Origin: a plasmid
DNA: 64,000 nt
Strand: one strand, 5' to 3'
Assembly (NCBI RefSeq): GCF_055900595.2
Contig: NZ_JBVWEU010000003.1
Each line of letters starts with the position of its first letter. Position 1 is the first letter of the stretch. The notes beneath the pieces are model-generated. The model was not told the origin of the DNA and made no database searches. It saw only the letters and a program-made list of their open reading frames with translations. Shown one piece after another: positions 9,276 through 61,704 of this stretch. Both the position numbers and the translations under genes were made by a program.

Positions 9276-10124
9276 ATGAATCAGACTTTACCCACTGCTG
9301 ACCTGAATACTGCCGGCACGACAGATGTTATTCCGTCTGTGGCTATCGACCGCATCATCGCGCAGCGTAACGAAGGTATTACACTGTTCATGCAGGCGAT
9401 GGAATGCCTGGCGACAGCGCGCAGGATTCTGCTCGATGCGTCAGGTGATATTTTTCTTTACGGGTTTGAAGACTGCGTGACTGATTCCGTTCGTCGCATG
9501 GATAAACCGGAAGAAGCGAAAAGGAATATCACCCGTCTTGCCGACCGGAAAATCTGGGACCGCCTGATGACAGATACGGGCATGTACACCTTCATGAGTT
9601 CATGCCAGCGTGATGAGTGGAACAGCCAGCTGATGAGCGACACCTGTCCTGAAATCACCCTGGACAATGTACTGGCAACATTCCGCCATCTGAATGCCAG
9701 CAAAATGCAGACATTTGAACAGGGACTGATTGATGTCTACCGGAAATTGTCATGGGATTACAGAACCAATAATCCCTGCCGTCTGGGCAAGAAAATCATT
9801 ATTGAAAACCTGCTGTACCGCTGGAGTAACGGGCGTGTGACGCTGGACTGCAGCGGACGGGAGGCACTGGATGACCTGGTACGTCCGTTTTATCTGCTGG
9901 AGGGGCGCAACGTTCCTGACTTCCGGAGCAGCATCGGGGCGCAGTATTGTGAATTTCTCGGGAACGGCGACAATATCGGTGAGTTGTTTGAAGGGGAATA
10001 TTTTACGGTGCGTGGCTACCAGAAAGGAACCGTACACATTGTCTTTAAGCGTTCTGACCTTGTTGAAAAACTGAATGATATTATTGCACGGCATTATCCT
10101 GGTGCATTGCCGCCACGAGTCTGA
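9276..10124 (+). CDS. Hypothetical protein, first gene downstream of the oriT-proximal ssi element
   Basis: 282 aa from ATG 9276 with GAGGAG RBS; no motif recognised with certainty; followed by a terminator. Confidence 0.6.
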   Translation: MNQTLPTADLNTAGTTDVIPSVAIDRIIAQRNEGITLFMQAMECLATARRILLDASGDIFLYGFEDCVTDSVRRMDKPEEAKRNITRLADRKIWDRLMTDTGMYTFMSSCQRDEWNSQLMSDTCPEITLDNVLATFRHLNASKMQTFEQGLIDVYRKLSWDYRTNNPCRLGKKIIIENLLYRWSNGRVTLDCSGREALDDLVRPFYLLEGRNVPDFRSSIGAQYCEFLGNGDNIGELFEGEYFTVRGYQKGTVHIVFKRSDLVEKLNDIIARHYPGALPPRV

Positions 10125-10132
10125 TTAAACAG

Positions 10133-10170
10133 AAAAGCCCTGGTATTTATGCCGGGGCTTTTTTTTCTGT
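10133..10170 (+). terminator. Probable rho-independent terminator
   Basis: Imperfect GC stem (AGCCCTGG...CCGGGGCT) followed by an 8-T run. Confidence 0.5.
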
Positions 10171-10209
10171 AATCATCATAATCTCAGAACACGATGTGAC
10201 ATTGTCACA

Positions 10210-10545
10210 TCAATTGTTGTTCATATCGATGCCATCTTTCCTGCCTGAATCTGTCTTTTTAGGTGCTGTTTTAGAGGAAGAACGGCGGGATGGTTTTTTC
10301 GATTCTGCTTCCCGAATAATGTCACGAAGTGCCTTCTCTCCTACTTCATACCCTGCATTTTTGAGCGTGTCACGAACATCTGCAAGTGTATAACCCTTTG
10401 TCCTTACCAGGACAATGATGTCATCACGAATGGCATCAAGAAAATCACGCAATGTTTTCCGTTGAGCGGTGAGGTCCGGCAATTCCGATAAGGCAGATTT
10501 TGCCAGCTGGATGTCATCATCTGAGTAAAATTTTTTAGAAGCCAT
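10210..10545 (-). CDS. Hypothetical small protein adjacent to oriT, divergent from nikA
   Basis: About 111 aa from ATG 10545 with GGAGAG RBS; charged and helical, Lys/Ser-rich basic C-terminal tail. Confidence 0.5.
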   Translation of the reverse strand: MASKKFYSDDDIQLAKSALSELPDLTAQRKTLRDFLDAIRDDIIVLVRTKGYTLADVRDTLKNAGYEVGEKALRDIIREAESKKPSRRSSSKTAPKKTDSGRKDGIDMNNN

Positions 10546-10599
10546 TGGCACTGTCTCTCCGTTTCATGTTGAAGCCTGATTTTATCATCAAAAACTGAC

Positions 10600-10777
10600 T
10601 CCTGGCAGGGCTGCGCCCTGCCTCTGCCGTCTGCATAAGACTATGATGCACAAAAATAACAGGCTATAATTGCATGAAAAACGGGACAGGATGTGGGAAT
10701 GTCGGACCGCGCACGCGCACTCAGACATTCCCCACCTGGTCAGGGCTTTGCCCCGACACCCCGGTAAGGAGCAGACC
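10600..10777 (-). other. oriT: Origin of transfer, R64-like; predicted nick in the - strand between + coordinates 10687 and 10686
   Basis: The - strand reads ...GGGGTGTCGGGGCAAAGCCCTGACCAGGTGGGGAATGTCTGAGTGCGCGTGCGCGGTCCGACATTCCCACATCCTGTCCCG...; inverted repeat GGGAATGTC/GACATTCCC (10695-10703 and 10724-10732) beside an ATCCTG motif; immediately upstream of nikA. Confidence 0.7.
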
Positions 10778-11110
10778 ATGAGTGAGAAGAAAACCCGAAC
10801 GGGCAGTGAGAACAGGAAGAGAATTGTAAAATTCACGGCGAGATTCACGGAGGATGAGGCTGAAATCGTAAGAGAAAAAGCGGAGTCAAGTGGACAGACG
10901 GTTTCAACATTTATACGAAGCTCTTCACTGGATAAGGTGGTTAACTGCCGTACTGACGACCGTATGATTGATGAGATTATGCGTCTTGGCCGCCTTCAGA
11001 AGCATCTGTTTGTGGAGGGAAAACGCACTGGTGATAAGGAGTATGCAGAGGTTCTTGTTGCCATTACTGAATATGTCAATGCTCTGCGAAGAGACTTAAT
11101 GGGACGCTGA
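10778..11110 (+). CDS. nikA: Relaxosome accessory protein NikA (ribbon-helix-helix)
   Basis: 110 aa from ATG 10778 with AAGGAG RBS; small basic RHH-like protein directly upstream of the relaxase. Confidence 0.85.
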   Translation: MSEKKTRTGSENRKRIVKFTARFTEDEAEIVREKAESSGQTVSTFIRSSSLDKVVNCRTDDRMIDEIMRLGRLQKHLFVEGKRTGDKEYAEVLVAITEYVNALRRDLMGR

Positions 11111-11121
11111 GATAACTGCTG

Positions 11122-13842
11122 ATGAATGCCATTATTCCGCACAAAAGACGTGACGGCAGGTCTTCCTTTGAAGACCTGATTGCGTACACGTCTGTGCGGG
11201 ATGATGTGCAGGAAAATGAGCTCACAGAAGACAGCGAAATCAAGAGTGATGTCCCTCACCGCAACCGTTTCAGACGGCTTGTTGATTATGCAACACGCCT
11301 GCGTAACGAAAAATTTGTCTCCCTGATTGATGTGATGAAAGACGGCAGTCAGTGGGTAAATTTCTATGGCGTAACCTGTTTCCATAACTGCAATTCACTG
11401 GAAACAGCTGCTGAAGAGATGCAGTACAAGGCGGACAAAGCTGTTTTTTCCCGTAATGATACAGACCCCGTTTTCCACTACATTCTTTCCTGGCCTGCGC
11501 ATGAAAGCCCGCGTCCTGAGCAGCTTTTTGACTGTGTGCGTCACACACTGAAATCTCTTGAACTCTCAAAACATCAGTACGTGGCTGCCGTTCATACGGA
11601 CACGGATAATCTGCATGTGCATGTTGCCGTGAATCGTGTACATCCTGAAACTGGTTATATTAACTGGCTTTCCTGGAGCCAGGAAAAACTCAGTCGTGCA
11701 TGCCGTGAACTTGAACTTAAGCACGGATTTGCGCCGGATAATGGCTGCTTTGTGCATGCACCCGGCAACCGTATTGTGCGCAAAACAGCGCTGGTACGTG
11801 AGCGCCGTAATGCCTGGCGACGCGGGAAAAAGCAGACGTTCAGGGAATATATTGCGCAGATGTCGATTGCCGGGCTGCGTGAAGAGCCCGCACAGGACTG
11901 GTTATCTTTGCATAAACGGCTGGCCAGTGATGGTCTGTATATCACGATGCAGGAAGGGGAACTGGTGGTGAAGGATGGCTGGGACAGAGCGCGGGAAGGT
12001 GTTGCACTCAGTTCGTTCGGACCGTCATGGACAGCTGAAAAACTGGGGCGGAAACTGGGGGAATATCAGCCTGTACCGACAGATATTTTCAGTCAGGTGG
12101 GGACACCCGGTCGTTATGATCCGGAAGCCATAAACGTGGATATCCGGCCGGAAAAAGTGGCAGAAACGGAGAGTCTGAAACAGTACGCCTGTCGTCACTT
12201 TGCTGAACGCTTACCGGAAATGGCGCGAAATGGTGAACTGAAAAGTTGCCTGGCTGTACACCGTACTCTGGCAGAGGCGGGATTATGGATGGGGATTCAG
12301 CACGGGCATCTGGTACTGCATGATGGATTTGATAAACAACAGACACCAGTACGTGCAGACAGTGTGTGGCCGTTAATGACGCTGGATTATATGCAGGATC
12401 TGGATGGTGGATGGCACTCTGTACCGAAGGATATTTTTACTCAGGTTATACCCGAAGAACGATTCCGGGGACACAGTATTGGCACTCAGGCTGTCAGCGA
12501 TTACGAATGGTATCGCATGAGGATGGGCACTGGTCCACAGGGTGCCATAAAGCGTGAACTGTTTTCCGATAAGGAAAGTCTGTGGGGATACGCTCTTATT
12601 CAGTGCAGGAGCCAGATTGAAGAGATGATAGCTGGCGGGGATTTCAGCTGGCAGGCATGTCATGAGATGTTTGCGCGTAAAGGGCTTATGCTGCAGAAAC
12701 AGCATCATGGTCTCGTGATTGTGGATGCGTTTAATCATGAACTGACACCGGTGAAGGCCAGCAGTATCCACCCGGATTTGACGTTATCCCGGGCCGAGCC
12801 TCAGGCCGGGCCATTTGAAATTGCGGCTGCAGATATTTTCGAACGGGTGAAGCCTGAATGTCGCTACAATCCGGAACTTGCTGCCAGTGATGAAGTGGAG
12901 CCCGGCTTCCGGCGCGATCCTGAGCTGCGTCGTGAGCGCCGTGAAGCCCGTGCAGCTGCGCGGGAAGATTTGCGTGCGCGTTATCTTGCATGGAAGGAAC
13001 ACTGGCGTAAACCCGATTTACGTTACGGCGAACGGTTGCGGGAAATTCATGCTGCCTGCCGTCGTCGCAAGGCTCATATCCGCGTGCAGTTCCGGGATCC
13101 ACAATTGCGTAAACTGCATTACCATATTGCAGAAGTGCAACGTATGCAGGCGCTGATCAGACTGAAGGAAAATGTCAGGGAAGAGCGACTGGCGCTGATG
13201 GCGGAGGGTAAGTGGTATCCGTTGTCCTACCGGCAGTGGGTGGAACAACAGGCGGCGCAAGGCGACAGAGCTGCAGTGTCACAGCTCCGAGGCTGGGATT
13301 ATCGCGATCGTCGCTCGCGTAATAAGGATAAAAGACGCACAACTAATGCTGATCGTTGTGTCGTTCTCTGCGAACCCGGAGGAACGCCACTTTTTAATAA
13401 TGTTGCAAAACTTGAAGCTCGTCTTCAGAAAAATGGAAGTGTTCATTTCAGGGATACGCGGACAGGAAAAAATGTCTGTACGGATTACGGAGATCGGGTT
13501 GTGTTCTACCATCACACGGACCGAAATGAACTGGCAGAGAAGCTTGATTTAATTGCGCCAGTTCTGTTCAGCCGCAACGGAAAGCTTGGTTTTGAGCCGG
13601 AAGGTTCATACCAGCAGTTTAATGATGTGTTTGCAGAAATGGTGGCCTGGCACAATGCAGCGGGAATAACCGGAAACGGACACTTCACCATTACTCGTCC
13701 GGACGTGGATTTGCACCGTCAACGCAGTGAGCAGTATTACCGGGAATATATCAGACAGCAGACCCGTTTATCGGAGAGCCATGATGATAATTATACGTTA
13801 CGGCAGGAGAAAACATGGGAGCCACCATCACCTGGAATGTAA
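11122..13842 (+). CDS. nikB: MOBP-family relaxase NikB
   Basis: 906 aa; His-rich relaxase motif HTDTDNLHVHVAVNRVHPETG; size and position match R64 NikB. Confidence 0.9.
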   Translation: MNAIIPHKRRDGRSSFEDLIAYTSVRDDVQENELTEDSEIKSDVPHRNRFRRLVDYATRLRNEKFVSLIDVMKDGSQWVNFYGVTCFHNCNSLETAAEEMQYKADKAVFSRNDTDPVFHYILSWPAHESPRPEQLFDCVRHTLKSLELSKHQYVAAVHTDTDNLHVHVAVNRVHPETGYINWLSWSQEKLSRACRELELKHGFAPDNGCFVHAPGNRIVRKTALVRERRNAWRRGKKQTFREYIAQMSIAGLREEPAQDWLSLHKRLASDGLYITMQEGELVVKDGWDRAREGVALSSFGPSWTAEKLGRKLGEYQPVPTDIFSQVGTPGRYDPEAINVDIRPEKVAETESLKQYACRHFAERLPEMARNGELKSCLAVHRTLAEAGLWMGIQHGHLVLHDGFDKQQTPVRADSVWPLMTLDYMQDLDGGWHSVPKDIFTQVIPEERFRGHSIGTQAVSDYEWYRMRMGTGPQGAIKRELFSDKESLWGYALIQCRSQIEEMIAGGDFSWQACHEMFARKGLMLQKQHHGLVIVDAFNHELTPVKASSIHPDLTLSRAEPQAGPFEIAAADIFERVKPECRYNPELAASDEVEPGFRRDPELRRERREARAAAREDLRARYLAWKEHWRKPDLRYGERLREIHAACRRRKAHIRVQFRDPQLRKLHYHIAEVQRMQALIRLKENVREERLALMAEGKWYPLSYRQWVEQQAAQGDRAAVSQLRGWDYRDRRSRNKDKRRTTNADRCVVLCEPGGTPLFNNVAKLEARLQKNGSVHFRDTRTGKNVCTDYGDRVVFYHHTDRNELAEKLDLIAPVLFSRNGKLGFEPEGSYQQFNDVFAEMVAWHNAAGITGNGHFTITRPDVDLHRQRSEQYYREYIRQQTRLSESHDDNYTLRQEKTWEPPSPGM

Positions 13843-20071: not shown

Positions 20072-20575
20072 TTACTGATAGTGTTTTATGTTCAGATAAT
20101 GCCCGATGACCTTGTCATGCAGCTCCACCGATTTTGAGAACGACAGTGACTTCCGTCCCAGCCTTGCCAGATGTTGTCTCAGATTCAGGTTATGTCGCTC
20201 AATGCGCTGAGTGTAACGCTTGCTGATAACGTGCAGCTTTCCCTTCAGGCGTGATTCATACAGCGGCCAGCCATCCGTCATCTATACCACGACCTCAAAG
20301 GCCGACAGCAGGCTCAGAAGACGCTCCAGTGTGGCCAGAGTGCGTTCACCGAAGACGTGCGCCACAACCGTCCTCCGTATCCTGTCATACGCGTAAAACA
20401 GCCAGCGCTGACGTGATTTAGCACCGACGTAGCCCCACTGTTCGTCCATTTCAGCGCAGACAATCACATCACTGCCCGGTTGTATGCGCGAGGTTACCGA
20501 CTGCGGCCTGAGTTTTTTAAGTGACGTAAAACCGTGTTGAGGCCAACGTCCATAATGCGTGCACTGGCGCGACAT
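20072..20575 (-). pseudogene. insB: IS1 insB interrupted by an in-frame stop
   Basis: InsB frame reads ...LSAFEVVV[14 protein letters not shown]... where canonical InsB, as recalled, has ...VVIWMTDGW...; an internal W to stop change splits the ORF into 20282-20575 and 20072-20281. Confidence 0.75.
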
Positions 20576-20769
20576 CCGACGCCATTCATGGCCATATCAA
20601 TGATTTTCTGGTGCTTACCGGGCTGAGAGGCGGTGTAAGTGAACTGTAGTTGCCATGTTTTACGGCAATGAGAGCAGAGATAGCGCTGATGTCCGGCAGT
20701 GCTTTTGCCGTTACGCACCACGCCTTCAGTAGCGGAGCAGGAAGGACATCTGATGGAAATGGAAGCCAC
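20494..20769 (-). CDS. insA: IS1 InsA
   Basis: 91 aa; [30 protein letters not shown]... zinc-finger-type InsA. Confidence 0.95.
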
Positions 20770-20830: not shown

Positions 20831-22996
20831 TTATTGTTTTATTCCGTCTTTATCATCTCCATTAATATTTTTCAGTTTTTCTTCACGAACGCCAGGTGTT
20901 CTGCGCATATTGGTATTACCTCCGGCAATAATATCTTTGACTGAAGAAACCATATTCCCCAGCATATTAACGCCGTCACGTCCGCCCAGAAAATTAATTA
21001 CATGGTCAGGCAGATAAGCCTGAAGTGCAAAAACGGCGGCAACCAGCGTGGTACAGACGCGGGCATAAATCATCAAAAATCCTGCCATGCTGAACACGCC
21101 CGTCACAGAATTTATCTGGACATTCATCAGCGCGGCGGCAAACAGCGCATTCAGGATTGTGCCGCCGGCCACGATGGCGACCGATGCAAAAAAGAACCCG
21201 AATACCATCAGCAGCGGTCTGATCATGCTGTCTATCAGGTAGATGTAACCGTAAGCGGCCCGGCTTCCCCGGTCCTGGCTTGTTCCCAGATGGGTGGCCG
21301 CCCAGAGGGGGCCAGCAGCACATCCAATCAGTACGCTAACTATCCAGTTACCAATGCCGGTCATCCAGAAGATAAACGGAATAAACGGCAGGTAAATGGA
21401 TAACGAAAAGCCGGCACAGAACAGCAAAAACAGCAGGAAGTAGAGCGGTGGAGCGGCTGCTTCCAGAAAAGCCTTTGCGGCGTCAGATAATCCGCTGACG
21501 GCATTGACCAGTCGACCAAAAACGGAGTTGCTGCCGGCCGTGGAAAGTACCCTGACGGTGGTATAACCCGCCCAGATGGTTTCGGTTGTAACCATGGTGT
21601 AATCGCCAATGTTTTTCATTTTTATCAACGGATTTAGTTGATTAGTTGTGGTACCTGTACCGCTCAGATAAGTGGCTGTCCAGTTAGTCATTCTTGTTAG
21701 GTTAAACCCAATCAATTTTAAGATTGCTGATTGAGGGTCTTGAGTTTTAGATGCGTGGTATTCACTGGCAGAGGTGGCGGTTCCCAGTGCAGGAGTATAC
21801 GCTGAGTTCTGCAACTGTGCCTGGTAAGCTCCTCTGACTTCCTTCAGGAACTCCGTATCCCCGGCTTCGCCCAGTGACGAGACGCCACTCACAGTAGGAG
21901 CGCGGTTGGCCAGGTCTTCCAGTCGCTGGTTGGCGGTGGCAAAGGTCTGGTACCAGGCACCCAGGGCAACCCAGCCGTAGGTGGTCAGGTAGGATTTCAA
22001 CTGCTCCCTGCGCTCAGTTTCTGCGTTATCTGCCGGCAACGCCTTCTGCACCGTTTCTTCATACCGGTTGGCTGCCTTCTGAATACGGCTTTCAATATCC
22101 GGCAGGTTGCCGTTACCCGTGTCGCGTCGGGTCCGGTACGCTGACACAAATTCCTGTGCTGCGCTGTCCAGGTCACGGAGCATGGTATCCATGGCGGAGC
22201 GTTGTGCCGTCAGGACTCCCTGATACTCCGTTTCAATGAAGGGATTGAAAAAATGGGCCAGCGCGGACTGGTTGTTGCTGCCATTCCCTTTCACGGTGAG
22301 ACTCACACTCCCGCAGGTGGCACTGCCATTTGAAACGGTGACGGTATACCTGCCGTTCTCTGTCCGTGAGGATTCGCTCATGGGCGGCGTTGATGAACGT
22401 GCGGTACGGTTAAAGTCATCGAGGCCCGTATTCATGGCGTGTTTGCACAGCGCCATCTCCAGAATTCCCCGTGCTGCCGTGCGGGTGGAGACATGTACTG
22501 GCTGTACGGTCATTGAATAGCCTTCAGCGATGTTTTCTGCAGCAGTCTGAACCATGATATTGGCGGAACCGATGCCCATGATGGATGCGCCCCAGAGCAT
22601 GACCAGTTGTGCCAGGCTCCAGCCGGAAGCGGTGGGCACAATCATCATAAAACCGCTCACAATACTGAGCATTCCGACGACGTCCCGTCCGTTGTTAAAG
22701 ACATTGCCCTGGTGGCCGGTGCGGACAGCATGGCGGATTCCAATAAACAGGAACCAGACTATCCCCATAATGGCGATAATTGCGTTAAACACCATGAACA
22801 GGTTGCCGATAATGGTGTTGCTGCTGGCTGTCAGGGGATTTGTGACCACATCACCAAAAATGGTGACCAGTGCCTGGCGCGACAGGTCATCCGGATTGGT
22901 GGCGGCGCTCACAATGTCCTGATAGGTGACGAATGCCTGTGCAGGTACGGCAGCCAGCGCCAGACCCGCACTCAGTGCTCTGGGTATGATTTTCAC
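20831..22996 (-). CDS. traY: TraY (DotA-like integral membrane protein of the I-type T4SS)
   Basis: 721 aa; signal peptide and many TM helices; size and position as R64 TraY. Stop codon lies 6 bp from the IS1 end. Confidence 0.8.
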   Translation of the reverse strand: MKIIPRALSAGLALAAVPAQAFVTYQDIVSAATNPDDLSRQALVTIFGDVVTNPLTASSNTIIGNLFMVFNAIIAIMGIVWFLFIGIRHAVRTGHQGNVFNNGRDVVGMLSIVSGFMMIVPTASGWSLAQLVMLWGASIMGIGSANIMVQTAAENIAEGYSMTVQPVHVSTRTAARGILEMALCKHAMNTGLDDFNRTARSSTPPMSESSRTENGRYTVTVSNGSATCGSVSLTVKGNGSNNQSALAHFFNPFIETEYQGVLTAQRSAMDTMLRDLDSAAQEFVSAYRTRRDTGNGNLPDIESRIQKAANRYEETVQKALPADNAETERREQLKSYLTTYGWVALGAWYQTFATANQRLEDLANRAPTVSGVSSLGEAGDTEFLKEVRGAYQAQLQNSAYTPALGTATSASEYHASKTQDPQSAILKLIGFNLTRMTNWTATYLSGTGTTTNQLNPLIKMKNIGDYTMVTTETIWAGYTTVRVLSTAGSNSVFGRLVNAVSGLSDAAKAFLEAAAPPLYFLLFLLFCAGFSLSIYLPFIPFIFWMTGIGNWIVSVLIGCAAGPLWAATHLGTSQDRGSRAAYGYIYLIDSMIRPLLMVFGFFFASVAIVAGGTILNALFAAALMNVQINSVTGVFSMAGFLMIYARVCTTLVAAVFALQAYLPDHVINFLGGRDGVNMLGNMVSSVKDIIAGGNTNMRRTPGVREEKLKNINGDDKDGIKQ

Positions 22997-52481: not shown

Positions 52482-53990
52482 TCAGTGCAGCAGCGTATAG
52501 CTGTCCTCATCGACGGGAGAGATGTAATGGGCCGCCAGCGGATCAACCTGTCCGCTGTTGATTTTTCCCAGCAGATGCTGATTACGGGTCATTCCGCCCA
52601 GTTCCCGGTGCCAGTAGGTTCTGGCCTCGATACGCCCCTTTTCCCGGTACAACTGGAAAAAACGCGCATCCGGGGAGATAACTTCTGCGATCACCGTTCG
52701 CCCCGTCACGCCACGCCAGCAGTGCGGGCAGCCGTCATGGTTTCGCAGATATACCTGGTCCGGGTTACAGACGCTTTCCACCAGGCGCCGTTCATCATCC
52801 GTGCGCTCGGTAGCCACCTCATGCCAGGGGCGACGGCAGTGCGGACATATCAGCTGAACCAGACGCTGGCTCAGCAGGCCAATGAACAGTTGCGGGTCGG
52901 CAATCATCCTGGCCTGTACCCCCTCCATCTCAAGACGTTCGAGGATGTTAATCGGGTCGTTCGCATGAATGGTGGTCAGCATCAGATGGCCGGTCATGGC
53001 GGCTTTTATTGCCGTAATGGCGGAATCGTGGTCGCGGATTTCACCGTTCAGGATCCCGTCGGGGTCAAGACGCAGTGCCGATTTGATGGAGTCCACCCAG
53101 CCCTGCGCGGTATCCATGACGGCGGTCTGAATGGCACCGGGTATACGGCCCTCTGGCGGGGATTCAATGGTGAACAGCCTGCGACGGGGCAGAAGAATAC
53201 CGCCGGTATTGTTGAAGCCGTACTGTTCAAGGTACGCCGCAGAGGCGGTTCTCAGCGTGGTGGATTTTCCTGAGCCGGTGGGGCCTGAGAGCGTGATAAT
53301 GCCTTCAGGGCGCTGCAGAATGCGGCGAAGAGTGCGCTCCTGGTCAGGGTGATAGCCCAGCATACTGAAGGTCGGGATTTGCTGACTGTCATCCTTGATC
53401 AGACGGAGCACAGCATAGAGGCCGCCCACACAGGGGTAGTGGGAGTAGCGTGCACCAAACAGACCGGCCAGTTTCAGATACTGCTCTGAAAGACGTGCAT
53501 CCTGAGGCACCCCGGGATCAAACTGTGTGCCCTTGATAACATCGGTCATGCCGGAATAGGTGGCCCCCAGTAATTCGAGGCCTTCTTCTTTCCGGAGGAT
53601 ATCGAGCACTTCCAGTTCGCCGTGAACCCGGGCTTCCACATAGGTGAAGTCCGTGTTGTCTCGTCCCGGGGTCATATGAAGGTCTGAGGCACCAAGAGAG
53701 GCAGAATGGCGGATATAGCCGAGCATTTTTTGCTGTACCGGGTTAATGACGCTTTCATCACCGGCGGTTGTGGTGTCCTGTCTGAGGCGGGCTATCACAT
53801 CCAGGGTGGTGAATTCAAAGTCTCCCACACGCCCCTGATGACGTGCGCGCAGGCGGGTCAGATATTCCTGGACGGCACGCAGATGTTTTTTTCCCTCCAC
53901 GACCCTGACCCGCAGATGACCGGTTTTATCTGTGTCGATAGCCACATAATCCAGAATGTCATCCGGTGGCAGGTCTGCAGGATCCAACAT
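52482..53990 (-). CDS. pilQ: PilQ pilus assembly ATPase (GspE-like)
   Basis: 502 aa; Walker A SGPTGSGKSTT; CxxC...CxxC tetracysteine motif. Confidence 0.9.
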   Translation of the reverse strand: MLDPADLPPDDILDYVAIDTDKTGHLRVRVVEGKKHLRAVQEYLTRLRARHQGRVGDFEFTTLDVIARLRQDTTTAGDESVINPVQQKMLGYIRHSASLGASDLHMTPGRDNTDFTYVEARVHGELEVLDILRKEEGLELLGATYSGMTDVIKGTQFDPGVPQDARLSEQYLKLAGLFGARYSHYPCVGGLYAVLRLIKDDSQQIPTFSMLGYHPDQERTLRRILQRPEGIITLSGPTGSGKSTTLRTASAAYLEQYGFNNTGGILLPRRRLFTIESPPEGRIPGAIQTAVMDTAQGWVDSIKSALRLDPDGILNGEIRDHDSAITAIKAAMTGHLMLTTIHANDPINILERLEMEGVQARMIADPQLFIGLLSQRLVQLICPHCRRPWHEVATERTDDERRLVESVCNPDQVYLRNHDGCPHCWRGVTGRTVIAEVISPDARFFQLYREKGRIEARTYWHRELGGMTRNQHLLGKINSGQVDPLAAHYISPVDEDSYTLLH

Positions 53991-54086
53991 AAGGCCTCCT
54001 TACGGGCAGCGGCGCCCGGAAAATATGTTTTCTGTTATTAAGCGAGGGAAATAATCAGTTCTTCTGCGGAGAGAATCTGGACATTT

Positions 54087-54761
54087 TCAGCACAGGCTTA
54101 ACAGTGTAAAAATGATTACGCCTCCAAAAGCGAATAACAGGGGAATGTTTTTCTCCGGCTGTGTTGATCTCAGCGTTAATACCGGTGTGGCGAGAGCGTA
54201 AAAAATAATACCTGCGGTATAAATAAAATAAGGTGTGATGCCGGACAGATTACATACACTGGCGAATATCATAAGCATGACGGCAACTACCGATAAAATA
54301 ATGGAAGTATTCTTCCATTCACCAGATGGTGTAAGTGAAATGATATCGCCATCCTGTTTATAGTTCGTGTTCAGCTTCAGGAAATGACGGATATCTTTCA
54401 GCGTGTTCAGTTTCTGCTGGATCTCTTCCACAAGTTCCTGTCTGTCGGTTTTTTCACGGAGCAGCTGGAATTTTGTCTCCCTCAGTACAGATATAATACG
54501 GTCCACCTGGCCGGGGGAGGGATAGTAATGATGTTCGAGCATCCACCGGATATCGGCGATTAACCGGTCAGTTACCGGTGTATTACCGTTGTTAATGAGA
54601 GGTGTTTCGTGCATCCACTGAAATATGCGGTAGATATGTTGCTTAACAAAAATAAAATCATCGGTGGTTTTATTCTCCAGCATGAGATATATCCCGTCGA
54701 GTGTTAATAATAAAACGTCCCGGGTGTGAGGTGATTTGTGATGTATTGTACGGAATATCAT
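54087..54761 (-). CDS. Uncharacterised membrane-anchored protein inserted between pilP and pilQ (gene 2 of 2)
   Basis: 224 aa; soluble N-terminal domain of about 150 aa followed by three predicted TM helices; visibly AT-rich compared with the flanking pil genes. Confidence 0.55.
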   Translation of the reverse strand: MIFRTIHHKSPHTRDVLLLTLDGIYLMLENKTTDDFIFVKQHIYRIFQWMHETPLINNGNTPVTDRLIADIRWMLEHHYYPSPGQVDRIISVLRETKFQLLREKTDRQELVEEIQQKLNTLKDIRHFLKLNTNYKQDGDIISLTPSGEWKNTSIILSVVAVMLMIFASVCNLSGITPYFIYTAGIIFYALATPVLTLRSTQPEKNIPLLFAFGGVIIFTLLSLC

Positions 54762-54778
54762 TTCTGCACTGTAATCGT

Positions 54779-55333
54779 TTACGCAGGTGATATATCACAC
54801 CAGAGTAAATACAGCGGAATGAAGCTGTAGAGTGACCAGAAAAGCCCGACGGGATCTTTTGCCCACAGGCATAAGAATGTCAGTCCGGTGCACCATGCGC
54901 CGGCAAGTGCCGCGCATAATTCAGCGCCTCCGGAATTGCCGCTCTTCATCATATAACAGAGCGCGATCAGCAGTGGGATAATGAAGACGAGCGGCAGGAC
55001 AAAGGATTCGGCTGCGGATATCCATTCCCGGTAACGCCAGCGGTCGTTTAATCTGTCGGCATCATATTTCAGACAGTTGCTCAGGAACGCCAGATCGTTC
55101 ATGAGGGGGGCGTCCTGGCCATACTGCGCCGCGAGGCGCATTCTGGCACCCCACAACCGGGCACTCAGGGCACGGAGTTGTGCCGGGGTGACCTGTTTTC
55201 CCCGACAAAGTTGTACCTGTAATTGTGTTGCCTCGTGGACAATATCTGTGTGGTTCACCCCATATTCTGCAGCGGCTGTTTCCAGGTCACGGATGATCAG
55301 GCTGAGCCAGGATATCAGTTCACTGATGTTCAT
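54779..55333 (-). CDS. Uncharacterised membrane-anchored protein inserted between pilP and pilQ (gene 1 of 2)
   Basis: 184 aa; helical soluble N-terminal domain of about 110 aa followed by two or three TM helices. Confidence 0.55.
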   Translation of the reverse strand: MNISELISWLSLIIRDLETAAAEYGVNHTDIVHEATQLQVQLCRGKQVTPAQLRALSARLWGARMRLAAQYGQDAPLMNDLAFLSNCLKYDADRLNDRWRYREWISAAESFVLPLVFIIPLLIALCYMMKSGNSGGAELCAALAGAWCTGLTFLCLWAKDPVGLFWSLYSFIPLYLLWCDISPA

Positions 55334-55381
55334 TGTCGTTCATCCTTTTGTACGGACAGCCGCCTGTACTGGCGGCCGGTT

Positions 55382-55834
55382 TCATGGTCGCAGGGTTTTT
55401 CTGATGCCGGACTGCTCCAGTACCACACTGTCCGGTGTGATTTTCTCCACGAGATAAGGGGTTCCGGGGATGTTCTGGCCCGTCTTCACATCGGTGATGT
55501 GTCCACCCGGAAGTTCTATCCGGGCGCTCAGCTGAGGCTGTACACCAAATATTTCTGTCAGACGGGGGGATGTCGCCGTCGACGGGGCAGTCGGGATGGC
55601 GGACGTGCTTTCCTGCGGACGACCGGGCTCTGCGGGAATACCCTGCTCCAGCATGCGCAGTTCATGACGGATTTTCTCTCTCGCCAGCATGGCTTCATAC
55701 AGGGCTGTTTCGTCCTGTATCCGCTCAATCTGCAGTTGCCGGGGACTCTGTTCCTCTGCGTTTCCGGTTGTGGCCATTGCCGTTGCCGGTAACAGCAGCG
55801 CTGAAACCAGAAGGGCTTTTGTTTTAGCGTGCAT
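55382..55834 (-). CDS. pilP: PilP
   Basis: 150 aa; signal peptide MHAKTKALLVSALLLPATAMA; size and position as R64 PilP. Confidence 0.7.
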   Translation of the reverse strand: MHAKTKALLVSALLLPATAMATTGNAEEQSPRQLQIERIQDETALYEAMLAREKIRHELRMLEQGIPAEPGRPQESTSAIPTAPSTATSPRLTEIFGVQPQLSARIELPGGHITDVKTGQNIPGTPYLVEKITPDSVVLEQSGIRKTLRP

Positions 55835-57119
55835 AATATTTACCTGTAAATTGATAGTGGAAACGACCGTTCTCCAGTTGTCGTGTGACAGAGATAAAAC
55901 GGACAGAAGGCGCCTTCAGACGTTCAACCAGCTGGTATGCCGGGAGTAGCGTCTGTATCTGAAGGTCATACTCTTTCCACGGAGGCTGGATAATATTTCC
56001 GTTTTCATCGGTGACGCTGTTACTGACCTCCTGCCAGTCCAGCGTCAGTGGCATTGACTGAGCAAGCGTGGTCAGTTGTTCTTGCAGGACAGAGCTTTCC
56101 GGCAGAGCATCAACGTCGACGGGATGTTCAGGCAGGCGGAAGCTGACTGGCAGGCCAATGCCGCCGGTCTTTCCTTCCGGCATCACAATAAAGGGGCGGG
56201 TGCCCGTCATATCACTGATGCGCCGGATGAAGTCAGTCACTGTCGCGCCAGCTGTATTAGTGTACGAGGCGCGAAGATTGCCGCTGCCGCCGTCAGTTGA
56301 ACATTCAGCCAGCGAATAACGCCATCCGGCGGCAGACAATGGCAGTGACGTCCATATGTCAGCACATCCCTGGATAAAGGCGTCGGTTTCGGGGAGTCCG
56401 GGCCAGGGGGGACTGATTCGTTCCTCTGTGGCCTGTCGGGCAGCTGCTGCCTGCGCGGCTTGTTCAGTCTTCCACCGTTCATAATACTGCCAGCCGTACC
56501 ATGCAGCGCCGAGAAGGGCGATGATCAGCGAGACAGTGATGAACTGCGCTCCCCGGGATACCGGATTCAGGCGCGCGGCAGCCGGATGTTTACCAGAGCC
56601 GGTCAGGGTGGACAGCGGCAGGGCCTGATTCTGATCGCCTGCTGAAAATGCCACCGGTTCATAGCGTGTCCAGCCCTGCTCCGGTTCGGTGTTGATGGAA
56701 AGAAAGGTATCCCGGGCTTCCCGAACCTCTTCCCCGCTTCCCACCAGGTCACTGACGAGAACACCGTCGACAACGGAAACAAAGCTGTAGCGCGGTGTTT
56801 CTCCGGGTAACGTCAGTTCCGTGATGGCATAGCCGCCATGTTCAAGTAGTGGCAGGATCAGCAGGGCGAGGGAGAAGCACTGACGGGGTTTTCCGGGCAG
56901 TATGCGGCGACTGACAGTGGCCACCATGGTGTGGGTATCGGCATCTTCATTACTGAGATACTGACAGGCCAGGAAAAGGTCGGCTTTCTGTGCCCGGGCA
57001 AAGTCGCGGGCATGCCGGTACTGTGAGGGCAGTGTTTTCCATTCCAGACCGGCCAGAAACATATTCCGTCCTGCCGTCAGCGGAAATACCTGCCGCTCTG
57101 TCGGTGAAATATCCGTCAC
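55824..57119 (-). CDS. pilO: PilO
   Basis: 431 aa; size and position as R64 PilO. Confidence 0.7.
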   Translation of the reverse strand: MTDISPTERQVFPLTAGRNMFLAGLEWKTLPSQYRHARDFARAQKADLFLACQYLSNEDADTHTMVATVSRRILPGKPRQCFSLALLILPLLEHGGYAITELTLPGETPRYSFVSVVDGVLVSDLVGSGEEVREARDTFLSINTEPEQGWTRYEPVAFSAGDQNQALPLSTLTGSGKHPAAARLNPVSRGAQFITVSLIIALLGAAWYGWQYYERWKTEQAAQAAAARQATEERISPPWPGLPETDAFIQGCADIWTSLPLSAAGWRYSLAECSTDGGSGNLRASYTNTAGATVTDFIRRISDMTGTRPFIVMPEGKTGGIGLPVSFRLPEHPVDVDALPESSVLQEQLTTLAQSMPLTLDWQEVSNSVTDENGNIIQPPWKEYDLQIQTLLPAYQLVERLKAPSVRFISVTRQLENGRFHYQFTGKYYAR

Positions 57120-57139: not shown

Positions 57140-58759
57140 TCAGATGATATTGGGCGTGATCAGCACCACGAGAATGGTGTCGTCGTTTTCACTGTTGATC
57201 CCACCGCCAAGACCGAAGAATCCCGGCGTGCCTACACCCTGTTTTCCGCTGCGACGTCCTGACTGCTGGAAGCCACTGATAATGACCGTCTGCCCGGATT
57301 TCAGATCCACGGTCTGATTGATGGTTTTCAGATCCACATTCGGCAGCTGGGCTTTACTTCCACCGCTTTCATAATTCTCAATAACCGGTTTGTCGGAGAG
57401 ACTCATGGAATAGAGCAACTGCAGTGTCTGTGAGTCCGGGAGAATGAACGGCAGAAGGGTCATGTTAAAACCGGTGGTGATGGTGGCCGCATTCAGGGAG
57501 GTGGATGAGCCGACATTGGCAGTGGTATCCGTCGTCACACTCTCGATGTAACTCTGCTGATTGGCGATCTGCATTGGCACCGGCGTCAGGTTTTTGGTGA
57601 CGGCAGAGTGCTGGGTCACCACACTGACAACCCCCTGGGAAGACAATGCTTTCAGGAAGGCTTTTGAACCGGTGAGTTTACCGTCCACAATGGAAACACC
57701 ACCTGTGATGGCATCACTGGCTGCACTGGTGAATGTGCTGCCGAGACTCAGTCCCAGCGTTCTGTCGCTGAAGACTGCGTTCCAGTCGATACCGGCCTGC
57801 TCATTGCGGGTTTTCCGGATACTCAGAATTTCCACATTCAGCACCACCTGACGTTTCATCTCTTCATTGCGTTTTTCAATGAATGCCCGGACCGTTTCCA
57901 GAACCTGTGGATTATCTGTGACGGTTATAAAGCCCGTGGACATGAACATGCGTCCGATACCCGGGGTCAGCATTGATGTGACCGCATTTTTCACATCCTG
58001 ATACAGCGCAGACTTCATATCCACGGTGGTGGTCTGGGTATTGCTGGCATCACCGGAAATGGCATCTGATGCACTGCCTCCTGATGAGCCGTTTGAGGAC
58101 ATGGTGCCGCTGACCACAGTGGCGTTATAGGTCACCTGACTGTCCATATAGGTGATGGGGAAGGTCTGTGTCTCGAGATAATAGAAGATGATATGCGAGC
58201 CGTCATAGCGCCAGGATATACCGAGACGGGAGGAGACCGCATTCAGCAGGGTCGTCAGGCCGGAGGCATTCAGTTCAGACAGTGCTGCGGTATTTCCCGG
58301 CAGACGGGATGATGGCGTGTCAGATGCGCCAATGGCGGCAAGGGGAACCATGCCGCTTGCATCCGGTGGGGGTAACGCGCCCTGGATTTGTTGTGTGCTG
58401 CCGGTTGTGGATGTATTCAGGTATGTCAGTACATCAGGTGTGATCCGTACAGGAATATGGCAGCTTTCCGTGATCCGCTGAACCACCTGCTGAAGGGTGA
58501 TGCTCTGACGGGTATGAATGACAATGGGACAACCGGGAACGGTTTTGCCGGTGTTTTTATCCATGACCGGACGGGGATTGATCCATTGTCGAGAGGATTC
58601 CTTAACAACCGGCGTCCGGGTTCGCAGATCAGACATCATTTCCCGTGCCCGTTGTTGTTCCGCAACGGCTTCCTTTCTTGTGCTCTCAAGCTGTCTGTAA
58701 CTGGCACAGCCCTGTAACAGAGCGGCGGCAATCATAATGGCAAGAATTTTTTTATTCAT
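57140..58759 (-). CDS. pilN: PilN secretin lipoprotein
   Basis: 539 aa; lipoprotein signal MNKKILAIMIAAALLQGCAS; secretin-like C-terminal domain. Confidence 0.85.
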   Translation of the reverse strand: MNKKILAIMIAAALLQGCASYRQLESTRKEAVAEQQRAREMMSDLRTRTPVVKESSRQWINPRPVMDKNTGKTVPGCPIVIHTRQSITLQQVVQRITESCHIPVRITPDVLTYLNTSTTGSTQQIQGALPPPDASGMVPLAAIGASDTPSSRLPGNTAALSELNASGLTTLLNAVSSRLGISWRYDGSHIIFYYLETQTFPITYMDSQVTYNATVVSGTMSSNGSSGGSASDAISGDASNTQTTTVDMKSALYQDVKNAVTSMLTPGIGRMFMSTGFITVTDNPQVLETVRAFIEKRNEEMKRQVVLNVEILSIRKTRNEQAGIDWNAVFSDRTLGLSLGSTFTSAASDAITGGVSIVDGKLTGSKAFLKALSSQGVVSVVTQHSAVTKNLTPVPMQIANQQSYIESVTTDTTANVGSSTSLNAATITTGFNMTLLPFILPDSQTLQLLYSMSLSDKPVIENYESGGSKAQLPNVDLKTINQTVDLKSGQTVIISGFQQSGRRSGKQGVGTPGFFGLGGGINSENDDTILVVLITPNII

Positions 58760-58789: not shown

Positions 58790-59227
58790 CTAATTCATCC
58801 AGAGGATGACGTGATCGGGGATCACTGACGGAAGTGTGATGGAAAGCGCTCTGCCGGCAGTGTCCAGCAGCCGGCCGTTTTCCACCCTGCCGAGGAGGGC
58901 AGAGTCATGACTCTGTTCCCTGAGGGCGGCCATCAGGCCCGGGGTTTCTGTGGCCCAGACAAAAACACGTTGCTGGCTGATGATATGACTGACGGTATCC
59001 GTCCCGGGAAGCCCGAGCTGAGCGGATGTCAGCCGCCCTCCGGCTGTCCGTCGTTCCGGATTCTGATGCAGGTAATCATTGATGGCGTTCATATAACGAA
59101 TGAACGTTGCTGCCTGTTGTGTGTTTTCTGCGGCCTGATGACGGTGTTCGCTGCGGGAGAGCTGACTGGTGAACCAGAAATTGCCGGTGGTCGTGATGAC
59201 CATGATGAACACGATGAACCAGCCCAT
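58790..59227 (-). CDS. pilM: PilM
   Basis: 145 aa; N-terminal TM helix; size as R64 PilM. Confidence 0.7.
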   Translation of the reverse strand: MGWFIVFIMVITTTGNFWFTSQLSRSEHRHQAAENTQQAATFIRYMNAINDYLHQNPERRTAGGRLTSAQLGLPGTDTVSHIISQQRVFVWATETPGLMAALREQSHDSALLGRVENGRLLDTAGRALSITLPSVIPDHVILWMN

Positions 59228-59231
59228 AAGG

Positions 59232-60302
59232 TTATTCCTGTGGACGATCTGTCACCCGCAGCAGACATTGTGCTGTGCTGGTCCGGGCATACAGCGGTTT
59301 TTCCACCGGGGTGTAGAGTGCAAATAGCTGTTCCAGCGCCTGGCGGAAACTGCCGGTGAAAACCAGAGGAGCATCGATGCTGTAGTTGACAGGTGTTTCC
59401 CAGCGCAGTGTCCATGTGCCGTGCGGGCATTTTTCGGATGATGTCCAGCGGGCCAGTCCGTCTTTCAGGGTGGTCCCCTTTTCCATTTTCCACTGCCGTG
59501 GCGGTATGACCTTCTGCGGTGGTGTCACTACCGGTTTCGTGGCCACCGGGGCTGGCGTGGTTGTTCTGCTCTCTGGTGTTCCGGATGTCCCGGTGGTGGT
59601 CTGAGCCCGGGATACGCTGACGGCAGGTGGTACCTGTGCCTGGTCTGCCGCTGTTCCGGTTGTGCTCCTGAACGGATTACGTGGTGTGTCCGCTGTTTTC
59701 TGTGAACCCTGCGGTGTCGTGACGTCGACCGGCGGTGTTGCAGAGGTCGTGACAGTCAGTATTTTCCTGTTCCAGTCCATATGTCCGTAAAGCTGCTGGC
59801 CGGCCAGCAGCGCATTCAGTGCCCGGTGCCACTGGTCATTAACGGACCAGGAAGGGAGGCGTTTGTTCAGTGCCGGTGTGGCGGCATTCTGCTGGCGGAA
59901 CTGCCAGCCGGTTGGCAGCAGCTGGCGTATCCAGTCACTGACGGTGCGCTGACGTGCTTCACGTAAATAAACGACGGATGAGGGACCGGGCTTACCGGTC
60001 ATAACCAGTGCAGACAGCGGTGTGGCCTGAAGAAGCGGGCGGGGAGGCAGTGCGGTACTCTGGCTGCTGACAGTGGTTGAGGGTGTCGCCGTTGTTGTCG
60101 GACGGGGCGGTGTCACAGGGCGGGTCACCGGTGGCGGAAGCAGACGTTTTTGCGTATGGGTGATAATGGCAGCACTTTCGCGAATTTGTCCGTCGACGAA
60201 CACCAGAGCCGGAGGCGTGGTATCCGGAACAGGCGTGGCATTAAATGCCGTACAGCCGCTGAGTAATGACGGCAGAAGGAGTGTCAGTGATTTCTTTTGC
60301 AT
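59232..60302 (-). CDS. pilL: PilL lipoprotein
   Basis: 356 aa; lipobox MQKKSLTLLLPSLLSGCTA; Pro/Thr-rich linker; size as R64 PilL. Confidence 0.8.
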   Translation of the reverse strand: MQKKSLTLLLPSLLSGCTAFNATPVPDTTPPALVFVDGQIRESAAIITHTQKRLLPPPVTRPVTPPRPTTTATPSTTVSSQSTALPPRPLLQATPLSALVMTGKPGPSSVVYLREARQRTVSDWIRQLLPTGWQFRQQNAATPALNKRLPSWSVNDQWHRALNALLAGQQLYGHMDWNRKILTVTTSATPPVDVTTPQGSQKTADTPRNPFRSTTGTAADQAQVPPAVSVSRAQTTTGTSGTPESRTTTPAPVATKPVVTPPQKVIPPRQWKMEKGTTLKDGLARWTSSEKCPHGTWTLRWETPVNYSIDAPLVFTGSFRQALEQLFALYTPVEKPLYARTSTAQCLLRVTDRPQE

Positions 60303-60423
60303 AGAATATAATCCGGTATATTACGGGTTACGGTATAAGACAGGTGGCGGGTAACTGGCCTTCAGATGAATATCATTTCATCGGGTTATTGATGATGAAC
60401 CTTAAAAATCACAGAGGTGATGC

Positions 60424-60819
60424 ATGATAAAGAAGATGTGGCGTTATTTACGGCAAATTGATAAGTATGAATTGCTGCAGCAGGTGATTTCAGTACATGA
60501 AGTGGAACTGCTCAGGAAAATGATGACAGATTCATTATTAGGGTGCTCAGTAGGATATGTGTTTTCGAAAATACTGAAGATATCCTTTCTGCGTTTTATT
60601 CAGTCTGAGGGGGGATGGGATATTATTACTTACTTTTTGTGGATGCTGGGAATACTTATTGTCATGGTCGCGCTGTTTATCTGGATGTGCGCCGCTGTAT
60701 GCTATGAGCTTCGGATGTATAAAATAAAAACAGGAAGGGAGAACGATATATTATTCTGGGTGTGGATTCTTCTTTTTGATGTCGCGGTTGTATTTTCGCT
60801 GGGTAATGTTATCTGGTGA
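60424..60819 (+). CDS. Small membrane protein on the + strand, convergent with the next ORF
   Basis: 131 aa; two C-terminal TM helices; long ORF in roughly 40 percent GC DNA, so unlikely to be chance; stop codon abuts the stop of the 60820-61251 ORF (TGATTA). Confidence 0.5.
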   Translation: MIKKMWRYLRQIDKYELLQQVISVHEVELLRKMMTDSLLGCSVGYVFSKILKISFLRFIQSEGGWDIITYFLWMLGILIVMVALFIWMCAAVCYELRMYKIKTGRENDILFWVWILLFDVAVVFSLGNVIW

Positions 60820-61251
60820 TTATGGGTTCAGTGACATATGGAAAAAGATAAGTGCGAACATTGATACTGAAGAATAATATATCCAGGAATAGAAAAACAT
60901 GAATTTCGGAGATGGTTTCTTCTGTCTCCTGTTTTTCAGGGGAGTCTGTGGGTCAAATGTTATCAGCGTCATTAAAGGATACCCTTTCATAAGAATAAAA
61001 ATATAGACGCATAAATGAGCGTAAAGAGGTAACCTGTCCTGCCAGAACAGAATCATCATGATGACGGCAAGATGAAATGTCGTTACATTGATATAATAAA
61101 ACCAGCTGTATTTACGCAGATACTGTTGGATATTCACGCTGTCAGCATGCGGTTCTGGTGAACAATTTATGCAAAAACAGAAGAAAGAAATGATGATGAA
61201 CACGGTCAGAGTGACCGGTAATACAGTCACAAGCAGAAAGAGTATGGACAT
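60820..61251 (-). CDS. Small polytopic membrane protein
   Basis: 143 aa, four predicted TM helices, AT-rich; occupies the pilK/pilJ position upstream of pilL, but homology is not recognisable. Confidence 0.5.
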   Translation of the reverse strand: MSILFLLVTVLPVTLTVFIIISFFCFCINCSPEPHADSVNIQQYLRKYSWFYYINVTTFHLAVIMMILFWQDRLPLYAHLCVYIFILMKGYPLMTLITFDPQTPLKNRRQKKPSPKFMFFYSWIYYSSVSMFALIFFHMSLNP

Positions 61252-61323
61252 AAAAATATCTCCGTCAGGATAGTGTGATTATTCCTTTATGGTTCCATAA
61301 CCCGGCGTAGCTCCGTCGACTGG

Positions 61324-61704
61324 TTATAATTTTATCCGGGACCTGGCTTTAAGGGGTAATGCCACCTCTTTCCATTCACTACAGCTTCCGGGAATACGTT
61401 CTGTGCGTCGTATTATTCGTGTGTTCTGGCATACAATAATCAGGGCATTGTCTGCCGTCTGAAAAGGCATAATCGCAATGTTAATATCTTCTGTTGCCGG
61501 GATACAGATGACTTTCTTTTCACATGTATTGGTGTATATGACAACTCTGAATTTTTCTGCGGACATTTTCAATCCTCTTTTAAACCAGAATATCCCGTGA
61601 GGGCATTCTTTGTGAAAAAGTTCTGTGGACTTCTCTATGACGGCAGGTAATGCATCCAGCAGGGCAAGACGGAAGCGGAGGCTGGTCTGCTCATCCGAAA
61701 GCAC
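61324..61704 (-). CDS. Hypothetical protein (pilI/traD position)
   Basis: 126 aa; no motif recognised. Confidence 0.45.
   Translation of the reverse strand: MLSDEQTSLRFRLALLDALPAVIEKSTELFHKECPHGIFWFKRGLKMSAEKFRVVIYTNTCEKKVICIPATEDINIAIMPFQTADNALIIVCQNTRIIRRTERIPGSCSEWKEVALPLKARSRIKL

Follow-up and report, generated by a model that had tools for sequence, protein, structure and literature searches.

The 64,000-nucleotide stretch of DNA analysed here (the window) is part of an I-complex Escherichia coli plasmid (mating-pair formation type MPF_I, IncK2/Z-typed), whose thin-pilus operon carries two additional genes, ORF1 and ORF2, between pilP and pilQ. The best overall explanation, with a probability of about 0.6, is that these genes form an accessory cassette encoding paralogous membrane proteins, that the cassette is the reduced form of a three-gene module, A-X-B, in which ORF1 is A, ORF2 is B and the middle gene X, encoded on the opposite strand, is missing, and that the proteins would work as membrane partners in the manner proposed below. 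What this explanation says about the nature of the pair is well supported: A and B are paralogous small inner-membrane proteins, their cassette was acquired between pilP and pilQ by an ancestor of the IncK2/Z plasmids, and it is the X-less form of a module found within conjugation-machinery operons of several unrelated types in Enterobacterales. The pair is no component of the pilus machinery proper. An earlier note on this DNA had described two extra co-directional open reading frames (ORFs) between pilP and pilQ, and they are present at the positions given there. It had not noticed that the module is a reduced form from which X has been lost.

The accessory nature of the cassette is seen most clearly from the variation at its insertion site. 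Homologous loci are labelled L002-L034, plasmid counts refer to PLSDB, and the IncIgamma/K1 plasmid L021 was used as the outgroup for comparison of the pilP-pilQ spacer. The segment 53500-56000 of the window is 100% identical to that of plasmid pLH50-c-A (NZ_CP100501.1), shares over 99% identity with 110 plasmids of PLSDB (largely IncK2 and linked to poultry), and is matched at a query coverage of at least 80% in 74 of 5,426 complete E. coli genomes. Outside the pil region, the identity between the window and NZ_CP100501.1 is mostly ~90-98%, with rearrangements. The pilP-pilQ slot is occupied in 110 PLSDB plasmids, scarred in 85 and filled by a toxin-antitoxin (TA) replacement in 17. The gap between the two genes holds no ORF in three IncK2/Z-typed loci (L003, L004 and L022; 84 bp) and in L021 (102 bp), and neither ORF1 nor ORF2 matches a type IV pilus biogenesis family in Pfam or NCBIfam below E=0.01. 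These ORF-free gaps and the scar in 85 plasmids support the proposal of the earlier note that the two genes are an accessory insertion, and they contradict the alternative that the pair is a conserved core component of all I-complex pil operons.

The empty sites are of two kinds. In the IncIgamma/K1 plasmid the spacer holds TTATTCCCCCGGCCCTTAATCACAAAAAAATCG, whose homolog in the window, GATTATTTCCCTCGCTTAATAACAGAAAACATA, lies downstream of ORF2 (~54026-54061, alignment A7). As this spacer retains what is the right flank of the cassette in the window, L021 never carried the cassette. In the empty IncK2/Z spacers this right-flank segment is missing, but the region before ORF1 has survived together with the ORF1 Shine-Dalgarno sequence (AAAAGGATGAAAGACA); these spacers are therefore deletion scars between the imperfect repeats GAA(A/C)GACA (55334-55341, which is GAACGACA in the window and forms the left microhomology in the pilP-ORF1 spacer) and GAAAACA. 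As the empty sites of the closest relatives are deletion scars, the cassette is ancestral within the IncK2/Z clade and has been lost there repeatedly, rather than being a recent gain. The replaced state is represented by L002 (NZ_CP075854.1), where a RelE/ParE pair on the opposite strand has supplanted most of the cassette and left an ORF1 stump of 72 amino acids with 67% identity over 46 residues. The inserted segment (3682-4461 of L002, an antitoxin-like gene and the RelE/ParE toxin gene), common to all 17 plasmids of this state, is ~86% identical to a segment of ~250 other plasmids (those sampled are mostly 45-80 kb), which suggests that it was imported from another plasmid family. The cassette itself was also considered as an insertion sequence, transposon, integron cassette or RNA element. 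Its boundaries carry no terminal inverted repeats and only short repeats at chance level, its junctions show only 7-8 bp of imperfect microhomology, the ORF list contains no recombinase and Rfam gave no match, and these candidates were rejected.

The same ordered pair, an A-like gene followed by a B-like gene, recurs outside pil operons and is co-directional with the host operon. In F-type tra operons it occupies the slot between traU and trbC, as in two Salmonella loci (L009, L010), two enterobacterial contigs (L015, L016), an E. coli IncFIB plasmid (L017) and the IncFII/IncFIB plasmids of Klebsiella pneumoniae (L018 and L019, the latter being pKp11-42); L028, a contig cut within B, likewise has the layout traU-A-X-B. 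In L027, a contig of assembly GCA_000773975.1, the pair lies just upstream of traD/traI, and in a Salmonella diarizonae plasmid (L020) it lies upstream of traH (DotD), traI and traJ in an I-type type IV secretion system (T4SS) region. It is also found in an E. coli chromosomal island (L005-L008) alongside an integrase, a TraI_2 relaxase and the island's own pil operon, where it stands before pilP, not after it, at a rearranged junction that includes a 5' pilP stump and ~130 bp of duplicated sequence. In L006 the full A-X-B (9761-12086) lies between the pilP stump and a second, complete pilP; the duplicated ~130 bp are the junction of the pilO 3' end and the pilP 5' end, and the motif AAAGGATGAACGACAATGAAC is tandemly duplicated before A. 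Solitary paralogs are located between pilV and traH in L024 and L025. A small ORF of ~95-100 amino acids follows B, before trbC or traD, in four loci (L009 11957-12253, L015 9307-9609, L016 9325-9627, L027 3226-3513); the L009 copy looks hydrophobic by eye, and the window has no counterpart.

By tblastn, the A family is present in 206 PLSDB plasmids (134 from Escherichia, 62 from Klebsiella, 6 from Salmonella and a few others), 203 of which are typed as conjugative, and all loci long enough to judge fall inside a conjugation gene cluster. That homologs occur in T4SS operons of both the F and the I type, and in a chromosomal island as well, bears out the horizontal acquisition that had been postulated for the pair. 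The module is thus not specific to the thin pilus, and its spread across unrelated machinery types makes a modulator of pilus biogenesis, one of the roles suggested earlier, or any other pilus-specific function unlikely.

Comparison of these loci shows what the window has lost. In L006, L009, L019, L020 and L028, A and B are separated by a conserved gene of ~225-240 amino acids, X, that is read from the opposite strand, convergent with A and divergent from B; X is likewise conserved on the opposite strand in L026 and L034. The encoded protein has the invariant motifs SHL...K...E..LN..YGG.TR...H.N and consists of three N-terminal transmembrane helices and a C-terminal alpha/beta domain (AlphaFold2 model, predicted local distance difference test score (pLDDT) 65); searches of NCBIfam, PADLOC, Pfam and PDB matched nothing. 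Among PLSDB plasmids, 81 contain X and 206 contain a member of the A family; in several F-type plasmids of E. coli, X is broken into fragments. L015 matches L009 collinearly, save that a clean deletion of 637 bp inside X joins its first ~five codons in frame to its last ~seven and leaves a 12-codon mini-ORF, MTIISFVQIHKT*, on the minus strand of the A-B spacer (L015 8544-8653; L016 8544-8652). This in-frame fusion of the first and last codons shows that X was deleted, not inserted, in the L015/L016 lineage. L018 and L027 are X-less as well. By parsimony, the IncK2 pair would be an X-less derivative of the three-gene module A -> <- X B ->, although blastn and tblastn with L006 and four X proteins detected no X remnant in the A-B spacer of the window. 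Two loci have a divergent X(-)/B-like(+) pair and no A: L034 (6260-7618), between traK (IcmT) and an LPD7-domain gene in an I-type T4SS operon, and L026 (520-1838), beside Phd and HigB/helix-turn-helix (HTH) toxin-antitoxin genes. Such a divergent X-B arrangement may represent the core from which the module arose. The A-B spacer of the window is bordered by an imperfect direct repeat of 14 nt, with one copy at the start of ORF2 (54680-54693) and the other at the end of ORF1 (54783-54796), reading GATATATCTCATGC and GATATATCACCTGC on the minus strand; it could be the footprint of an event that removed X, or chance.

The two proteins share their architecture. Neither has a signal peptide, and in both the N-terminal ~105-125 residues are helical and are followed by three hydrophobic helices (111-129, 139-157 and 161-181 in ORF1; 128-146, 153-171 and 180-198 in ORF2). 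Hydrophobic-helix prediction thus confirms the common plan of a soluble N-terminal domain and C-terminal transmembrane helices already recognized in the earlier note, and profile comparison indicates that it reflects true paralogy. When the ORF1 family (alignment A1) was compared with the ORF2 family (alignment A2), hhalign gave a probability of 97.9% and an E value of 4.6e-13 over the N-terminal 96 residues, and the hidden Markov model (HMM) of the ORF1 family picks up ORF2-like proteins at E values of 1e-7 to 1e-4; ORF1 and ORF2 are thus distant paralogs. The AlphaFold2 model of ORF1, built with 17 sequences, has a pLDDT of 82.7, four helices within residues 3-96 and membrane helices at 113-130, 134-157 and 161-181. 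Its invariant residues W99, R102, W104, K159, D160 and W166 are located just before the first transmembrane helix and in the loop between the second and third, which would place all six at the cytoplasmic membrane surface if the N-terminus is inside. The conserved motifs of ORF2 are WMLxHxYYPSPxQVD and LKDIRxFL.

The family is tiny, with 33 clusters retrieved by the ORF1-family HMM among 1.84 billion representatives, and its motifs persist at 20-25% identity across genera (alignments A1, A2 and A4). Searches of Pfam, NCBIfam, PADLOC and PHROGs with A and B returned only noise (best E 0.015-0.7), and when A, B and four X proteins were compared with PADLOC-DB v2, no family reached E<=1. Sequence searches of PDB hit designed helical proteins only. 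No known family in PDB or AFDB matched A, B or X; structure searches yielded nothing beyond helical bundles of a generic kind or enterobacterial relatives that are uncharacterised, among them an AFDB member from Erwinia typographi. Database names for all three proteins are 'hypothetical' or 'uncharacterized', and no mention of A, B or X was found in the searchable literature, including papers on IncK2 and I-complex plasmids.

Whether the pair is still maintained without X can be judged by comparing the window with L011, which has the same X-less junction. The proteins differ by 14% (ORF1) and 17% (ORF2), with no frameshift or stop. The ratio of nonsynonymous to synonymous substitution rates (dN/dS) is 0.28 for ORF2 (37 nonsynonymous and 34 synonymous differences; P=3e-6 for the nonsynonymous deficit) and 0.53 for ORF1 (27 and 15; P=0.048), and for neighbouring genes it is 0.05 (pilQ), 0.27 (pilP) and 0.34 (pilO). 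Without X, ORF2 is thus clearly under purifying selection and ORF1 only weakly so. In a minority of database sequences ORF1 is split by a frameshift into pieces of 77 and 107 amino acids, and some of these records may be assembly errors. These data also bear on the idea that the cassette is a functionless remnant, hitch-hiking in a clonally successful IncK2 lineage and neutral when deleted. The identity of more than 99% among 110 plasmids reflects recent clonal spread, deletion-scar and replacement variants exist, and A combines frameshifts in some sequences with a dN/dS of 0.5-0.6, all of which would be expected of such a remnant. The ORFs, however, have stayed intact across the divergence of two X-less lineages, the nonsynonymous deficit of ORF2 is significant and the motifs are kept down to 20-25% identity, so we regard a remnant as unlikely. 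The ordered paralogs, the conserved opposite-strand gene, the placement in conjugation operons only and the repeated loss of the middle gene make up an unusual pattern, which points to a genuine function tied to transfer and not to random cargo.

The mechanism that we propose for the module starts from topology. From positive-inside charge patterns, A and B are predicted to expose their helical domains, and X its C-terminal domain, to the cytoplasm while anchored in the inner membrane, and A and B would bind or regulate X, or a common membrane target, at that face. Production of A and B would be restricted to times when the transfer operon is transcribed. X would be made from its own promoter, and because read-through of the operon would be antisense to X, the expression of A and B should be opposed to that of X. 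The IncK2 pair would then be kept as orphan partners with some benefit independent of X, as the purifying selection on B, and weakly on A, suggests. This role as membrane partners of X that face the cytoplasm, retained in IncK2 after their partner was lost, is the preferred reading of function, though on balance doubtful. More broadly, and tentatively, at somewhat less than even odds, A-X-B may be an unrecognised system of three cytoplasm-facing inner-membrane proteins, with the middle gene transcribed against the operon, specialised to conjugation-machinery operons (of F-type T4SSs, of I-type T4SSs and of type IVb pili, the pilus operons being those of plasmids and of a chromosomal island) and coupling some activity at the membrane to the on or off state of the transfer genes, with the IncK2 pair as a working two-component derivative. 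Candidate activities are protection of the donor or transconjugant, a barrier to competing elements or pilus phages, and a transcriptional brake on transfer.

Several points weigh against the explanation as a whole. Its functional part is built on architecture and synteny, without homology to characterised families. The loss of X in IncK2 is a matter of parsimony, there being no detectable remnant in the window. Orphan partners of a lost protein should decay, and A is indeed frameshifted in a minority of sequences and has a high dN/dS. More than 100 plasmids keep A and B but have no X, which would fit just as well with A and B forming the functional core and X being an optional extra. Finally, the model of X is poor and the topology is a prediction.

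The reading in which A and B are the core and stand alone takes them as donor-side membrane modulators, produced whenever the transfer apparatus is, that would relieve envelope or ATPase-docking stress or adjust the efficiency of transfer. X would be an optional antisense brake on the expression of the distal part of the operon, lost under selection for higher transfer. It would account for the co-directional, tightly packed position of A and B in operons of several machinery types, for the clear purifying selection on B in the absence of X, and for the recurrent loss of a gene whose transcript would collide with operon read-through. It links the pair to no particular component of the machinery, however, and is pure inference; moreover, 85 related plasmids have lost the pair by deletion and are nevertheless typed as conjugative in PLSDB, so any benefit would be dispensable. 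We consider it fairly unlikely.

The company that the family keeps raises another possibility, that of an addiction, abortive-infection or defence module in which X is a membrane-anchored toxic effector and A and B serve as antidotes to it or as its sensors. What IncK2 retains would in that case be an immunity remnant without its effector, protecting against co-resident elements that carry X, or a pair that has simply not decayed yet. A RelE/ParE TA pair fills the same slot in 17 plasmids, family members adjoin PemK/MazE, HigB/HTH and Phd genes, X has repeatedly been lost or pseudogenised with A and B kept, and the high dN/dS is typical of conflict genes. The neighbouring TA genes may, on the other hand, merely mark a permissive cargo slot. 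An opposite-strand middle gene and three membrane-bound proteins are unlike a type II TA system, and cross-protection is doubtful at 25-40% identity. No model of Pfam, NCBIfam or PADLOC, the last being a collection of defence systems, matches A, B or X. A module of this kind is, like the donor-side modulators, rather improbable.

Entry exclusion, or a mating barrier more generally, was considered because A and B, with or without X, could act in cells that carry the plasmid and prevent redundant transfer in the way of TraS, ExcA or Eex. Both are inner-membrane proteins of small size and rapid evolution whose genes lie within transfer operons, X and ExcA share a layout of three transmembrane helices and a soluble domain, and in L027 the pair lies just upstream of traD, where F-like plasmids keep traS/traT. 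The window has also lost excA. The traY ORF ends at 20831 and is abutted by IS1 (insA 20494-20769, truncated insB 20282-20575), and tblastn with ExcA found nothing in the 64 kb, in agreement with the earlier observation that excA is not recognisable here. A plasmid whose 53500-56000 segment is identical to that of the window nevertheless carries excA directly after traY, and excA is given as one of the core genes of IncK2 plasmids in a published study (PMC12987596). Neither A nor B matched an ExcA, TraS or TraT model in NCBIfam. On these grounds the suggestion that the pair replaces excA is disfavoured. X was also tried as a cryptic ExcA homolog and rejected, with an hhalign probability of 0.3%. 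The family, furthermore, spans F-type and I-type T4SSs and a pil-carrying island, whereas exclusion proteins are tuned to one cognate TraG or TraY. An exclusion role is therefore very unlikely, and the accessory paralog cassette in its X-less form, with A and B as proposed membrane partners, is retained as the preferred explanation.

The coordinates of the cassette, its spacers and the neighbouring genes are collected in Table 1. The start of ORF2 deserves comment. Its frame is open from 54761 (54087-54761), and the ATG at that position, which is not conserved and lies in the 95-bp A-B spacer, is the source of a 224-amino-acid reading. The true start is most likely the ATG at 54683, giving 198 amino acids, since it is the one chosen by the Prokaryotic Genome Annotation Pipeline (PGAP) in the annotation of pLH50-c-A, since the 83%-identical variant L011 lacks the upstream ATG yet keeps AGGA/GGGA and an ATG equivalent to 54683, and since all ORF2 homologs are 193-205 amino acids long. 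ORF1 is preceded by the Shine-Dalgarno sequence AAGGA, 9 nt upstream of its start (55343-55347). No convincing terminator or promoter was found on the minus strand between pilP and pilQ, where there are only weak consensus matches, and a strong internal signal uncoupling the pair from the pil operon was accordingly rejected. The tight spacing, the Shine-Dalgarno sequences and this lack of a convincing terminator predict that the cassette is probably co-transcribed with the pil genes.

Table 1. Positions of the cassette, its spacers and neighbouring pil genes in the window
Feature	Position	Strand	Description and basis
ORF1 (A)	54779-55333	-	184 amino acids; four-helix bundle, RWxYREW motif, about three transmembrane helices, conserved LWAKDPVGLFWSLYSFIPLY motif
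ORF2 (B)	54087-54683	-	198 amino acids; paralog of A; N-terminal helical domain, three transmembrane helices; GC content 0.43
pilP-ORF1 spacer	55334-55381	-	hairpin GCCGCC-AGTACA-GGCGGC (~55359-55376) and ORF1 Shine-Dalgarno sequence; sequence reading, junction comparison
A-B spacer	54684-54778	.	95 bp; position of X (~640-780 bp) in complete modules; blastn, tblastn
ORF2-pilQ spacer	53991-54086	-	right scar microhomology GAAAACA (54026-54032); pilQ Shine-Dalgarno sequence AAGGAGG (53995-54001)
pilL	59232-60302	-	
pilM	58790-59227	-	
pilN	57140-58759	-	
pilO	55824-57119	-	
pilP	55382-55834	-	150 amino acids; upstream neighbour of the cassette; ORF list and PGAP annotation of pLH50-c-A
pilQ	52482-53990	-	502 amino acids; T2SSE-family ATPase; downstream neighbour; ORF list and PGAP

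On the minus strand the operon runs in the order pilL, M, N, O, P, ORF1, ORF2, pilQ, R, S, T, U, V. Its base composition is uneven. The low GC content of ORF2 (0.430), which the earlier note had offered as a sign of foreign origin, is indeed below that of the flanking genes (ORF1 0.541, pilP 0.574, pilQ 0.575), but it is a weak argument by itself since pilS (0.434) and pilT (0.430) are equally AT-rich. Another AT-rich stretch (60300-61350, GC 0.38-0.41) lies between pilL and an upstream pilI-like gene and contains a plus-strand ORF of 131 amino acids (60424-60819), which is annotated as hypothetical in pLH50-c-A.

The module is of practical interest. IncK2 plasmids spread blaCMY-2 in poultry and humans, and the IncF plasmids of Klebsiella and E. 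coli are major carriers of resistance; about 200 sequenced plasmids hold the module inside their transfer operons with all three proteins annotated as 'hypothetical'. It is small and well delimited, and natural variants are at hand in the form of the full module, the X-less form, the deletion scar and the TA replacement. Even if the pair proves to have no phenotype, the pilP-pilQ and traU-trbC spacers would still be permissive cargo slots in transfer operons.

The pair resembles several known systems in part. Like the core pil genes of the R64 type (pilI-pilV), some of whose products are small membrane proteins too, it is encoded in the same operon and on the same strand and is probably co-transcribed. 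It differs from them in being absent from the IncIgamma/K1 operon and from 85 IncK2/Z-typed operons, in matching no pil family of Pfam or NCBIfam, and in having homologs in F-type and I-type T4SS operons that are unrelated to type IV pili. With the exclusion proteins TraS/TraT of F, ExcA of IncI and Eex of SXT it shares small size, rapid evolution, an inner-membrane location and a place within transfer operons; it has no sequence similarity to them, co-exists with excA in the plasmid with the identical segment, and is found with several unrelated machinery types, as paralogs and often with an opposite-strand third gene. The type II TA cargo of the RelE/ParE kind uses the same permissive slot between pilP and pilQ, behaves as a hitch-hiker and is a frequent neighbour of the family. 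A, B and X, however, are membrane-bound proteins of 180-230 amino acids without toxin or antitoxin domains in Pfam or NCBIfam, and their convergent and divergent layout is not that of a two-gene operon.

The closest parallel to the gene arrangement comes from the pore-forming colicin operons, in which the immunity gene lies on the opposite strand inside the operon, and from artA of F, an antisense gene within the tra operon. As in those cases, and by analogy only, an antisense membrane-protein gene with its own promoter would lie between co-directional genes of an inducible operon, with opposed transcription; no homology is expected, and the opposite-strand gene of A-X-B differs in being dispensable and often lost. 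The pair in the window has A followed by its paralog B, with a 95-bp spacer in place of the opposite-strand gene. Accessory cargo within transfer operons is already known as a kind of thing, whereas the A-X-B module, which combines a paralog pair with an antisense gene and is confined to conjugation operons, though to several types of them, appears to be undescribed.

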